A stretch of 64,000 nt of DNA from Cladosporium halotolerans (taxonomy: Eukaryota). The translations under genes and the position numbers were made by a program. The notes beneath the pieces are model-generated. The model worked only from the letters and a program-made list of their open reading frames with translations, made no database searches and was not told the DNA's origin. Shown one piece after another: positions 1,988 through 6,474 of this stretch (positions are counted from its first letter, which is position 1; each line of letters begins with the position of its first letter). The stretch is taken from contig NW_027191452.1 in NCBI RefSeq assembly GCF_011745625.1, forward strand, positions 1,240,001 to 1,304,000, read 5' to 3'.

Positions 1988-2381
1988 GAGGGGCGCATTG
2001 CCTGCCTCTATTTGTGTGCTCTTTATTGCGAGCGCTGTCTGTACCATTTAGCGGTTCAAAGTGTAATGATTTCTCCGGCCAATCTCACCGTCATCTTAAA
2101 CTGACTTATGGCTTCCCTACAACGATGGATTGTGCATCCCTAAGGTCGGAGTTGTGGTCGTGCTGTCGCTAATTGATGATGCCGGTTATTCTTCGGCCCG
2201 ACGTCTGAGATCTAATCGATAAGCCACGCGCCCAATTTTTTGCCGATCGCTGGCGCGCTTTCACATGAACTTCGAGCTTCGGCGATCCAAACATTACCAA
2301 CCGCAACTGTGCCCCGACAGCAAGAAAACAATGACCACTCCGCTGCCACACGAGAGAGTCTTGCGTCACTTGTAGTACAAG

Positions 2382-4895
2382 ATGCGTCTCCGTCTCCGCA
2401 TTGAGCGCAACGGGCTGCCCACTGTCAGCACGCTCTGGCCGGTCACCGATCCACCGCAAAAGAAAACTATCGCCCAGTTCATCGAAGCTGTCAACCAAGC
2501 CTTTCCGCTAGAAGGCGACAGATGGGGTCTTGAGGACTATATTGTCACTGTTGCTGATTTTGAGTGTCTCCATTACCACTACGTCAGCGATGTTTGCAAA
2601 GACGACGAGGAGGTAGTCGTGCGACCGCTCACATATGCGGAGGTCAGGTCGAGGACTTTGACAGGGAGAAGCCAGATCAGCAGCGATGGGAAGAAGCTCA
2701 CAGACGGCATAGCTTTCGGGAAGCCACTCTTGAAAGCGCCCGTCAGGCCTGAGGTCATGATTCCGCCGAGAAAGAGGAAGCGAGCCACCGCAGATGAAGA
2801 TGACGGAGGGAAAAAGAAAGTGAGGTTCATCACAAACGGAGATGCTGAAGTGCACATTGAGTGCATACCTCCTGGAGGCCACAAGATGACCATGGCGCCT
2901 GAGCGCGATGAACATCAGGAAGATGAAGACGGAGGTTTCGAGCTTGGCGATGATGGCAAGTGCCACTGCCACACATCGTCCGATGCAGAGAATGGATTTG
3001 CCGGTGTTGCCTGGCATCCTGCCGACTCTGAACCCAGCGACTCTGATTCAAGCGACTCTTGTTCAGGCGACCCTGATTCAAGCGACTCTGATTCAAGCGA
3101 CTCCGATTCAAGCGACTCTGATTCAAGCGAAAGTACGGACAGTTCGAGTGACTCCTCTAGTGACGAGTCCAGCCACAACTCAAGTCACGTGTCAATGCCA
3201 AGGCCAACGAGCGCCGCCCTCAGTACAGGCGCGACAGCCAATGCAGTGGGTGGAGGTGAGGCGGGGAGCGCGCTTCCGGCGTCGCATTGTCAACAATCAG
3301 CGGTTGCCACGCCTCTTCCCTCCCTCCCACACGCAGGCAAAATGAAGACGCAAAAGCGAAACGCAAGACGACGCGAATCCAAGAAACTCGCTTACCTCAA
3401 AGGCCAAGGCATTCTTGCACAAGACGCAGATTTCACTACTCTACGTGAATGGGAAGAGGCGCAATATTCGACCGAGTATCTTCTTCCAAACCACGAACGC
3501 GGTGACTCTGACCCTACTTCCACCGCGACATTGGACGACGCCGACGAAAACGGCAGCCCAGAGAACGAAACAGAATCTGGTTTTGAAGCAACAGGGCAAA
3601 ATCTACAGCAATCAGCTCGGTCTGACGACATCATGCTCAACAGTAGGGGCGAGTGGATTCCGGAAGAGGATTTCGACGAAGGCCCCGAAGTACAGAGCAA
3701 CAAACTCGAAGCCCGCAAGGCAGCCTTGATGGGTCGTCTCCACCAGCAGAACATGGAAGGCATGGCCGCTAACGAACGCGGCCAAGGGCCTGTGGCTGGT
3801 CGCCGTGGAGTGAACGTGGCCGGCGCAGAGCGTCTCCTCTACGGCTCTCTAGGTGTGCGTACCCCTCAATCCCAGGAGCAGAGGGAAGCCGTGCAGAGGA
3901 CACTCGCTGCGCGTCTGGGTACCGCAGCCCCGAAACGCAAGTCTGATTCCCAGGACGAGGAATTGGCTGTCCCAGAAGAAGAAGAAGAAGCCGAAGACAT
4001 TGACTGGCATGAGCATATCGAACTTCTTGCCATCGAGTGCTGCGACGAAGGCGTTCAGCTCGCCACGCCTCCTTTCCCATTCCATCAGCACTGGGACCCT
4101 CAGTACCCCAAAAAGGAAAACCAGAACACGCGCGCCTACACAAACGCTCCACGCAAGCGCAGAAGAAGAAATAGACGTGCGATCGAGAGTGCGAATGCGC
4201 AGACATACGACAACAACAATGAAGGGTACGGCGATGCGCTCGATTACGACGATGACGGTGCGGACGAGGGCGCGTACATGGTTTCATACGACATGTATGA
4301 CGATGAAGACTACGACGATGCGCTCGATTACGACGATGACGGCGCGGTCGAAGGCGCGTACACGGAGACATACGACACGTACAACAAGGACGGCTACGGC
4401 GATGCGCTCGATTGGGACGGTGACGGCACCGCATACGATCACGGATACTGGGAAGGTTTCGGAGACGAAGAGGACCCCGCCGCGCAACAGCTCCTTGATG
4501 AAGCAACCGCGGCAGCACCAGTCGACGACTTCCCCGCTCTGCCGCAAGACTTTTCCAGCCTCAAAGCCATGACTAGCGAAGACGCGCAAGTCGGCGATTT
4601 CGTGACATTCACGGAACTCGTACTCTCTACTGCAACCAATTGGCAGCCCGAAATGCTGAGGCGGACTGTGCAGCTTCTGGAGAAGGAAGGCGACGTCTGG
4701 ACGATGAAGCTCGCTTTGAGGGACTTGGCGCCAAAGGAGTATGACGACCAAGGAGACAGGGTCTACGGGAAATTTGACATGGCGCCGTTGAATGGCGAAG
4801 AGGAACTCTCGGAGGAGGAAGAGAGGCTCAAAGTGGCTTCCTTCGCTGAACTCAACGACGCCAGACTGCTGCAAAGGGCAGAAATCAAGGAATGA
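2382..4895 (+). CDS. Acidic, largely disordered protein; candidate coilin homologue with an N-terminal folded domain and a C-terminal Tudor-like domain
   Basis: 837-aa intronless ORF. It has an N-terminal MRLRLRIER domain, basic NLS-like patches (PPRKRKR, KTQKRNARRR), Ser/Asp repeats and a C-terminus with DFSSL..QVGDFVTF..L.L..GKFD..FAELNDARLL. The confidence applies to the gene; the coilin identity is inferred. Confidence 0.8.
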   Translation: MRLRLRIERNGLPTVSTLWPVTDPPQKKTIAQFIEAVNQAFPLEGDRWGLEDYIVTVADFECLHYHYVSDVCKDDEEVVVRPLTYAEVRSRTLTGRSQISSDGKKLTDGIAFGKPLLKAPVRPEVMIPPRKRKRATADEDDGGKKKVRFITNGDAEVHIECIPPGGHKMTMAPERDEHQEDEDGGFELGDDGKCHCHTSSDAENGFAGVAWHPADSEPSDSDSSDSCSGDPDSSDSDSSDSDSSDSDSSESTDSSSDSSSDESSHNSSHVSMPRPTSAALSTGATANAVGGGEAGSALPASHCQQSAVATPLPSLPHAGKMKTQKRNARRRESKKLAYLKGQGILAQDADFTTLREWEEAQYSTEYLLPNHERGDSDPTSTATLDDADENGSPENETESGFEATGQNLQQSARSDDIMLNSRGEWIPEEDFDEGPEVQSNKLEARKAALMGRLHQQNMEGMAANERGQGPVAGRRGVNVAGAERLLYGSLGVRTPQSQEQREAVQRTLAARLGTAAPKRKSDSQDEELAVPEEEEEAEDIDWHEHIELLAIECCDEGVQLATPPFPFHQHWDPQYPKKENQNTRAYTNAPRKRRRRNRRAIESANAQTYDNNNEGYGDALDYDDDGADEGAYMVSYDMYDDEDYDDALDYDDDGAVEGAYTETYDTYNKDGYGDALDWDGDGTAYDHGYWEGFGDEEDPAAQQLLDEATAAAPVDDFPALPQDFSSLKAMTSEDAQVGDFVTFTELVLSTATNWQPEMLRRTVQLLEKEGDVWTMKLALRDLAPKEYDDQGDRVYGKFDMAPLNGEEELSEEEERLKVASFAELNDARLLQRAEIKE
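3036..3130 (+). repeat. 15-bp tandem repeat (AGCGACTCTGATTCA), about 6 copies, encoding (SDSDS)n
   Basis: Directly visible repeated AGCGACTC(T/C)GATTCA units inside the 2382-4895 CDS. Confidence 0.9.
4203..4430 (+). repeat. 84-bp (28-aa) tandem repeat, about 2.7 copies, Asp/Tyr-rich
   Basis: GATGCGCTCGATT starts at 4233, 4317 and 4401 (84-nt period) and encodes DALDYDDDG..EGAY...YD units. Confidence 0.9.
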
Positions 4896-5165
4896 TGAGC
4901 GTTGCTGCGCTTCGGAACATCAGCTTTCCGCTGACCTGAATCACACCAAATTGGTAAAGGGCAGAAGAAGGCGAGGAACAACGATTGCTTTGCTTTGGGA
5001 AATTAGCTGATCGTTGACACGAATGCCGCCAAACTGCTGGAAAGGGGCAGAAGAGGGCGAGGAACAATGATTGCTTTGCTTTGGAAAATTAGCTGACCGT
5101 TGACACGAATGCCGCCAAACTGCTGAAAAGGGCAGAAGAAGGCGAGAAACAATGAGCGTTGCTCT
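4840..5165 (+). repeat. About 85-bp degenerate tandem repeat, about 4 copies, spanning the stop codon and 3' flank
   Basis: GGGCAGAA anchors at 4876, 4959, 5045 and 5130. The later copies are nearly identical (GATTGCTTTGCTTTGG.AAATTAGCTGA.CGTTGACACGAATGCCGCCAAACTGCTG). Confidence 0.85.
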
Positions 5166-5703: not shown

Positions 5704-6474
5704 TCAAACGGGTACCAAGTGACAGCCGAGCATGCCTCTTCCACCCCAGTCCCGCCTGGGTGTCAGCTGCAGCTGAACGGTTTGCGAATCGCGTAGAACC
5801 TTCACTATGATCGTGTGGTTCTCGTTCTGTTGTACCACCTGAGCGACCCTGCTCAACCGCTCGTGGTTCGTCCAGTCCACATAGCCGAACCTGGTCACCT
5901 TGTCCCCTGCTTTCATGCCTGCCGTATCCGCCGGGCTGTCTTGTACCACAGTATTCACCCTCGCGAAAGGAGGCTCAATTGCAGATGATGCGGACTGAGT
6001 AGCAGCTGAAGCTGGCCCCGGAACTCCAACACCCACCGATGCGACTCGGGTCGGATTCGCAGCTGGCAACGACTCCGCGCTTTTTCCCGCCGCAAAATGC
6101 TCGTGAACCGCCTTTTCCACCTTCGTCATGAGCGACTTATGATCGTTCCGGAGCCGAATGATCCTTGCCCTGGTCGTGCGTATTTGGGCGACGTCAATAT
6201 CGGCGCGCGGGAAGCCGTCGAAGGTCGTCAGGCCGGTGTTCATGTTTACGCCATGCTACAGGGGTTGTCAGCCCATGATTGCGTATGCCCGCCGATTTGA
6301 AGGACTCACGGAGTCGAGGACCGAGCCCAGAGCCGAAAGCTCAGCTTCCAGGTTGTCTTTCCGAGCGATCAGCTCTTGCAGTGATTGCTTTCCATGGGTG
6401 CCATTTGTGGTTTGTTGCGAACTTGGTCCAGCAGCTACTGTCGGGGCGTGAAGGTCATCCATTCTGAGGCCCAT
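5704..6474 (-). CDS. NAS2: 26S proteasome regulatory particle assembly chaperone Nas2/PSMD9 (N-terminal helical domain plus PDZ)
   Basis: Exons 6474-6310 and 6255-5704 (intron GTGAGT..CTGAC..TAG). Motifs DGFPRADIDVAQIRTTRARIIRLRNDHK, PFARVNTV..SPA..AG and LTPRRDWGGRGMLGCHL. Confidence 0.95.

Follow-up and report, generated by a model that had tools for sequence, protein, structure and literature searches.

A DUF7357 family protein of Cladosporium halotolerans is a candidate coilin of filamentous fungi

Results

A single-exon gene with a conserved reading frame

The stretch of DNA analyzed here (the window) comprises 64,000 nucleotides from the fungus Cladosporium halotolerans (assembly GCF_011745625.1, contig NW_027191452.1, positions 1,240,001 to 1,304,000 of the forward strand), and all coordinates below count from its first letter. 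On the plus strand, at 2382..4895, lies an uninterrupted, single-exon open reading frame (ORF) that runs from ATG to stop, with the stop codon included in these coordinates, and encodes a protein of 837 amino acids. The protein begins with MRLRLRIER and carries near its C-terminus, in this order, DFSSL (D723, at nucleotide 4548), QVGDFVTFTELVLS, WQP, GKFDM and FAELNDARLL (L830, at nucleotide 4871). An initial annotation, made from the DNA letters alone, had described this ORF and quoted its N-terminus and C-terminal motifs, all of which are present as written. It went on to propose that the protein is a filamentous-fungal version of coilin, the scaffold of Cajal bodies in the nuclei of animals and plants. 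The evidence presented below leads us to think that this proposal is probably right.

Comparison of strains supports the integrity of the gene. When contigs from four public runs were aligned over 2200–5100, all four of the indels that fall within the ORF turned out to be multiples of three (6, 9, 3 and 15 nt), whereas the three located 3′ of the stop codon are of 2, 1 and 1 nt, indicating that the reading frame is under selection. One public contig of 2761 letters, which carries adapter letters at its 5′ end, brackets the ORF collinearly on the plus strand (2301..5029) without any joint. No segment is skipped in this contig, as would be expected of a single-exon gene. Possibly it represents an unspliced transcript, the RNA nature of the run being a guess. 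The start and end of the ORF also agree with those of related proteins in the family alignments.

The initial annotation regarded the protein as an orphan, and this view must be abandoned. At least 200 relatives were found at E ≤ 0.001 among 8000 scored candidates from a collection of 5.8 billion proteins, and Pfam family PF24054 (DUF7357) is present in every one of the 120 relatives listed. The ORF protein itself matches DUF7357 with a score of 175 bits (E 8.5e-52), far above the Pfam gathering score of 27 bits, and its residues 1–130 cover positions 1–131 of the 131-position profile. It is hence a full-length member of this Pezizomycotina family and shows no difference from it. Among the matches listed, the closest named relatives are Cladosporium proteins of 46–47% identity (by BLASTP, 47% for P0011 and 44% for P0020). 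Further relatives belong to Hortaea, Zasmidium, Cercospora, Pleosporales, Aspergillus, Penicillium, Colletotrichum, Ophiocordyceps and, among lichen-forming fungi, Agyrium and Chrysothrix; with taxa this varied, the family covers several classes of Pezizomycotina, the source fungus itself being a dothideomycete. A Pfam scan of the full ORF protein gave no family besides DUF7357 at E ≤ 10, and a search of PDB sequences with the full protein gave 0 matches. The term DUF7357 was not found in the literature searched, and the family is without a described function. No functional study of a Pezizomycotina coilin was found in the literature searched either.

Several members of the family are represented in databases by gene models that are fused to neighboring genes or misleadingly named (P0105, P0119 (Ophiocordyceps), P0033, P0053, P0110 and P0112). 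GTP cyclohydrolase II and BRCT occur as fusion partners, and the misleading names include "Zinc finger CCHC", "nucleolar and coiled-body phosphoprotein 1" and "Solute carrier family 40". We rejected the Nopp140-like and zinc-finger names borne by some relatives as low-complexity artefacts.

A Tudor-like barrel at the C-terminus

The C-terminal domain spans residues 712–837 (4515..4892, plus strand). Its description as a coilin-type Tudor-like barrel is based on a predicted structure, an alignment of 38 copies of the domain (A1), the Pfam matches of relatives, and BLASTP collinearity. With the last 137 residues of the ORF protein as query, phmmer recovered the same domain in 120 of 121 proteins (the query and its 120 listed relatives), P0104 being the exception, which places the conservation of this C-terminal block far beyond chance.

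In a number of these relatives, the block matches PF23086, "Coilin, C-terminal Tudor domain" (Tudor_Coilin), as confirmed by a fresh Pfam scan. Scores reach 39.9 bits in P0103, 34.1 in P0107, 31.5 in P0097 and 28.7 in P0121, against a cut-off of 27 bits, and P0118 lies just under it with 26.8. Tudor_Coilin was matched at E ≤ 0.05 by 15 of 48 full-length relatives scanned (nine of them at or above 27 bits). These totals include a second batch of 41 relatives, which contributed ten of the matches (five at or above the cut-off). Sub-threshold scores are seen in the dothideomycetes Lasiodiplodia (23.7 bits), Patellaria (21.5) and Mytilinidion (18.7). Scanned singly, 12 of the 38 copies in A1 match Tudor_Coilin at E ≤ 0.01, the best at 7.1e-11; the remaining Pfam matches in A1 are two unrelated singletons, and other Tudor families, including SMN and TUDOR, matched none of the 38. 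The domain of the ORF protein is in turn connected to the Pfam-positive relatives by phmmer E values of 1e-12 to 1e-19 (within the set of 121), and in full-length, collinear BLASTP alignments its residues ~720–835 coincide with the part of P0103 and P0097 that Tudor_Coilin matches. Through these relatives, sequence comparison makes the C-terminal barrel a transitive homologue of Pfam's C-terminal coilin Tudor. The ESM Atlas, queried with the C-terminal part and with the protein's own family excluded, gives Tudor_Coilin clusters as the nearest named ones (0.84 and 0.75), which we treat as a lead only.

The AlphaFold2 model computed with A1 is a small beta-barrel (mean predicted local distance difference test score, pLDDT, 89.1; predicted template modelling score, pTM, 0.79). 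Strands are predicted at residues 740–747, 757–769, 772–777, 816–820 and 825–831, and a long insert, conserved and acidic (YDxxGNRVYxKFEM ...), separates the third strand from the fourth. In VIA fold searches, the barrel resembles Spindlin-4 (Z 6.3), Tip60 (6.2), the RDM15 Tudor (6.0), BAHCC1 (5.6), the Esa1 knotted Tudor (5.4), FMRP (5.3) and the SMN Tudor (5.1; root-mean-square deviation 2.4 over 54 residues). Across these searches the highest Z scores are 6.5–6.8, where bL19 ties with Spindlin and Tip60; the documentation of the tool regards Z values below 8 as unspecific. Foldseek, run with the C-terminal model against the PDB, returned nothing at E ≤ 0.001. The likeness of the model to Tudor domains is limited to this unspecific range (Z 5–6.5). 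The predicted structure supports "Tudor/SH3-like barrel" and not "coilin" specifically.

Two further observations concern the surroundings of the barrel. It is preceded by a lead-in, DDFPxLPxDxSxL (residues 712–733, 4515–4580), that resembles a leucine-rich-repeat unit. Matches of the PDB profile search to leucine-rich-repeat proteins of Leptospira are spurious, drawn by this LPxLPxDLxxL lead-in. On the other side, the chains of Dothideomycete relatives end a few residues past the barrel. Relatives from Eurotiomycetes and Lecanoromycetes (P0097, P0101, P0103, P0107, P0113–P0118 and P0120; 1168–1413 aa) have, as modeled, 350–450 residues beyond Tudor_Coilin, which may be a genuine tail or a recurring fusion of gene models.

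A predicted ubiquitin-like domain at the N-terminus

The DUF7357 match defines an N-terminal domain of residues 1–130 (2382..2771, plus strand), made up of a ubiquitin-like beta-grasp core (~1–95) and a conserved extension (96–130). In an alignment of 21 N-terminal sequences (A2), 17 columns are invariant. The AlphaFold2 model obtained from A2 (pLDDT 79.9, pTM 0.70) finds as its top Foldseek rows ubiquitin, SUMO, ISG15, ubiquitin-like (UBL) domains or UBL-bearing fusion proteins, with probability 1.0, target TM scores of up to 0.77 and E values from 1.3e-3. A wide VIA search peaks at Z 8.6 and lists ubiquitin-like beta-grasp domains in nearly every row. By this modeling, the N-terminal domain is of ubiquitin-like fold, the fold also predicted for the N-terminal domain of coilin (PMC9556525).

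When the ESM Atlas was queried with the N-terminal part and DUF7357 clusters were excluded, Coilin_N clusters ranked second and third (0.80 and 0.78), again as a lead only. Together with the Tudor_Coilin clusters nearest to the C-terminal part, these leads mean that both halves of the protein point independently to coilin. A complex prediction with two copies of the N-terminal domain scored 0.01; it was run without controls or an alignment and counts neither way.

An acidic linker with a conserved central module

Between the two end domains, residues 136–711 contain 22% Asp and Glu, 15% Ser and Thr, and 16% hydrophobic residues, compared with 31% and 29% hydrophobic residues in the end domains. 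This acidic, hydrophobic-poor composition suggests that the region is disordered. Three basic patches interrupt the acidity, at residues 127–137, 324–336 and 588–601. Thus, of the disordered acidic and basic middle with patches resembling nuclear localization signals (NLSs) that had been proposed earlier, the acidity and the patches are found, and disorder and an NLS role are predicted from sequence only.

The first of these patches, IPPRKRKRATA (2760..2792, plus strand), is NLS-like and sits where the N-terminal domain ends; the family consensus keeps IPPRKR. It is followed by an acidic Ser/Asp tract of SDSDSS repeats (residues ~215–250; 3023..3130, plus strand), encoded by a 15-nt tandem repeat of 7.2 copies. 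A map of conservation across 38 full-length relatives shows three conserved blocks in the middle region, at residues 316–350, 481–510 and 541–575, with low conservation elsewhere. The first block (KTQKRNARRRESKKLAYLKGQGIL; 3327..3431, plus strand) is basic, contains the second patch and has a conservation of 0.56–0.63 over the 38 relatives; it also lines up in the pairwise comparisons with the relatives from Aspergillus and Agyrium. The other two belong to what we call the central module (residues 481–575, LLYGSLGVRTP ... WHEHIELLAIECCDEGVQLATPPFPFHQHWD; 3822..4106, plus strand; conservation 0.59–0.78). The 15 consecutive residues with the highest conservation in the whole protein, at 0.78, are located in the last block, around LATPPFPFHQHWD, and the module, which ends in PPFPFxQxWD, is the most conserved stretch of the family. 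The full-length Pfam scan gave no match for the central module, and a search of PDB sequences gave one at chance level (E 0.2). The module may be a short domain of a new type or else a docking motif.

Past the module come the third patch, NAPRKRRRRNRRAI (4143..4184, plus strand), NLS-like by composition, and an acidic, Tyr/Asp-rich repeat of 28 amino acids (4201..4427, plus strand; 2.7 tandem copies of 84 nt). Residues ~601–655 form an insertion specific to the lineage of the ORF, with a column occupancy of 0.03 in the 38 relatives. The lineage-specific repeat unit, YGDALDYDDDGA.EGAY..., differs in length among strains. In-frame insertions in variant contigs are of 15 nt at 4298, 9 nt at 3973 and 3 nt at 4211.

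Discussion

Previous studies set the background for these findings. In 2022, it could still be stated that "no fungal orthologue ... has so far been identified" for coilin, and Mug174 of Schizosaccharomyces pombe, "composed of two distal subdomains", was proposed as coilin by a structure-based study (PMC9666668). Mug174 forms condensates, frequently in association with the nucleolus, and is required for small nuclear RNA (snRNA) maturation and for quiescence; binding of Tgs1 needs its N-terminal part (PMC11347179). With Tgs1 and Eas1 it makes up the TEaM assembly, and Sm proteins co-purify with it (PMC13473130). The N-terminal domain of coilin has a predicted ubiquitin-like fold and mediates self-association and Nopp140 binding, and an RG box is described in the middle region of vertebrate coilin (PMC9556525). 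That middle region is described as poorly conserved (PMC9556525, PMC11347179).

Here, we suggest that the product of the ORF is the coilin of Pezizomycotina, corresponding to Mug174 in fission yeast: a nuclear scaffold with two folded ends and a long, probably disordered linker. We consider this the likely identity of the protein. The Tudor_Coilin matches of relatives, the barrel model, the ubiquitin-like N-terminus and the order of the parts all speak for the original assignment. With metazoan and plant coilin (PF15862 and PF23086), the ORF protein shares the succession of parts (PMC9556525): a predicted UBL domain comes first, then a middle of poor conservation that bears NLS-like patches, and last a predicted Tudor-like domain. 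Several of its relatives exceed the curated Tudor_Coilin threshold. It resembles Mug174 in having two folded ends around a putatively disordered, putatively NLS-bearing region. Mug174, too, was linked to coilin via structure, BLAST having given no connection to animal coilin (PMC9666668, PMC11347179). The differences are equally clear. Unlike metazoan and plant coilin, the ORF protein has no Coilin_N profile match, no RG box and a Tudor domain of its own that lies under Pfam detection, and it carries an extra central module and lineage-specific acidic repeats. From Mug174, its family differs by its own N-terminal Pfam family, DUF7357, and by the conserved module at residues 481–575. Homology and architecture thus support a coilin identity, the N-terminal sequence link to Coilin_N being without a profile match; a Cajal-body-like function would follow by analogy.

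A number of results weigh against this identification. The C-terminal copy of the ORF protein itself has no Pfam match even at E ≤ 10, and Tudor_Coilin is matched by none of the 19 members of its nearest group, so that the link to coilin is transitive, via more distant relatives. No coilin chain appears when the C-terminal family profile is compared with PDB sequences, nor among the rows listed from the Foldseek and VIA fold searches; a solved human coilin Tudor, cited in PMC9556525, is absent from those fold-search rows. Barrels of the bL19, KOW and LSm types score like Tudor barrels, all at unspecific Z values of 6.8 or less. At the other end of the protein, not one of 21 N-termini matches Coilin_N (PF15862) at E ≤ 10, nor do the full-length scans show it, and the ubiquitin-like fold is in any case very common. 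The strongly conserved central module is undescribed for coilin in the accessible portions of the coilin papers examined. Finally, no RG box is present anywhere in the ORF protein, which contains seven isolated, unclustered RG/GR dipeptides. The RG box is the SMN-binding site of vertebrate coilin and probably not a feature of the whole family; we do not take it as defining.

These points raise the question of whether the protein might be something other than coilin. It could be a lineage-specific Pezizomycotina nuclear protein that has nothing but the coilin-type Tudor barrel in common with coilin, through ancient domain shuffling or deep divergence. It would then act in another pathway, such as a nucleolar or rRNA-related one, and would neither stand in functionally for coilin nor form foci like Cajal bodies. 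We consider this rather unlikely. Several points favor it. The N-terminus has its own Pfam family without a profile link to Coilin_N, the most conserved block is the module undescribed for coilin, Eurotiomycete and Lecanoromycete relatives continue for 350–450 residues past the Tudor domain, and the gene adjoins that of RPA43, a subunit of RNA polymerase I, with fused models implying the same arrangement in two other lineages. In addition, Aspergillus nidulans is reported to be without canonical Cajal bodies (PMC11964246). Set against this, the protein agrees with coilin and Mug174 in its entire layout of UBL domain, acidic linker bearing basic patches and coilin-type Tudor and not in a single domain only, the Atlas leads for the N-terminal part favor Coilin_N as well, gene neighborhood carries little functional weight in fungi, and the foci of Mug174 are themselves often nucleolus-associated (PMC11347179).

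Two other identities seem far less probable. A chromatin reader that combines UBL and Tudor domains, like UHRF1, or has a barrel like those of Spindlin and Tip60, and binds methylated histone tails, would account for the histone readers among the top VIA rows (Spindlin-4, Tip60, RDM15 and BAHCC1; Z 5.6–6.3) and for the conserved aromatic residues of the barrel (in A1, F87 is invariant and Y84 nearly so). However, these Z scores are unspecific, with the ribosomal protein bL19 scoring equally high; the Pfam scan of the ORF protein shows no PHD, SRA, RING or other chromatin domain; and Tudor_Coilin is the sole Tudor-type Pfam family matched by any member of A1. We think a chromatin reader very unlikely. 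The idea of an acidic nucleolar phosphoprotein like Nopp140 or Srp40 is hardly credible. It would explain the acidic Ser/Asp tract and the annotation of P0110 as "nucleolar and coiled-body phosphoprotein 1", a name most likely due to low-complexity similarity. But Nopp140 has alternating acidic and basic repeats, where the ORF protein has a single Ser/Asp tract; no Nopp140 or SRP40 Pfam match is seen in the ORF protein; and nothing in Nopp140 corresponds to the folded domains at its two ends.

If the protein is indeed coilin, human coilin and Mug174 suggest, by analogy, a working model. Its ubiquitin-like N-terminal domain would self-associate and recruit Tgs1, the cap hypermethylase. The linker, acidic and basic, would provide for nuclear import and for the multivalent interactions from which condensates form, and the C-terminal Tudor-like barrel might bind the Sm ring or core of small nuclear ribonucleoproteins (snRNPs). 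Acting together, the parts would gather the maturation of snRNAs and snRNPs into nuclear foci that resemble Cajal bodies. By its likeness to Mug174, the ORF protein may be expected to partner with Sm proteins and, by way of its N-terminal part, with Tgs1. The central module would be an addition of the fungal family, probably a further site of partner docking. One can go further and propose that DUF7357 is a divergent Coilin_N, that a true coilin orthologue builds Tgs1/snRNP condensates akin to Cajal bodies throughout Pezizomycotina, fungi said in the literature to be without canonical Cajal bodies, and that the PPFPFxQxWD module is a fungal docking site replacing the connection between RG box and SMN. 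This extended proposal is put forward tentatively, as we are slightly more inclined to doubt it than to accept it.

Coilin was long believed absent from fungi, and Mug174 is the only fungal coilin characterized since (PMC11347179, 2024; PMC13473130, 2026). Should the identification be correct, proteins of the coilin type would span Dothideomycetes, Eurotiomycetes, Sordariomycetes and Lecanoromycetes. It would give a function to Pfam DUF7357, add a new conserved module to the coilin linker, and allow a direct test, in genetically tractable molds, of whether nuclear condensates organize the maturation of snRNPs and capping by Tgs1. The novelty is tempered by the fact that databases already hold Tudor_Coilin matches on Aspergillus and Penicillium relatives, as well as a Talaromyces marneffei entry named "Coilin", which figures, uncharacterized, as an omics marker in a 2026 paper (PMC13689312).

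Finally, the gene is flanked by two other ORFs. Upstream, on the plus strand, 680–1987 encodes a protein in which the OB domain of the RNA polymerase I subunit RPA43 is recognized (E 2.6e-23). Models that fuse RPA43_OB to DUF7357 are found in Friedmanniomyces (P0070) and Chrysothrix (P0121), and this same-strand neighborhood therefore seems to be conserved across classes. Downstream, on the minus strand, 5704–6243 encodes a proteasome assembly chaperone of the Nas2 type (Nas2_N, E 1.3e-19, plus a PDZ domain); this ORF call probably misses its 5′ exon.

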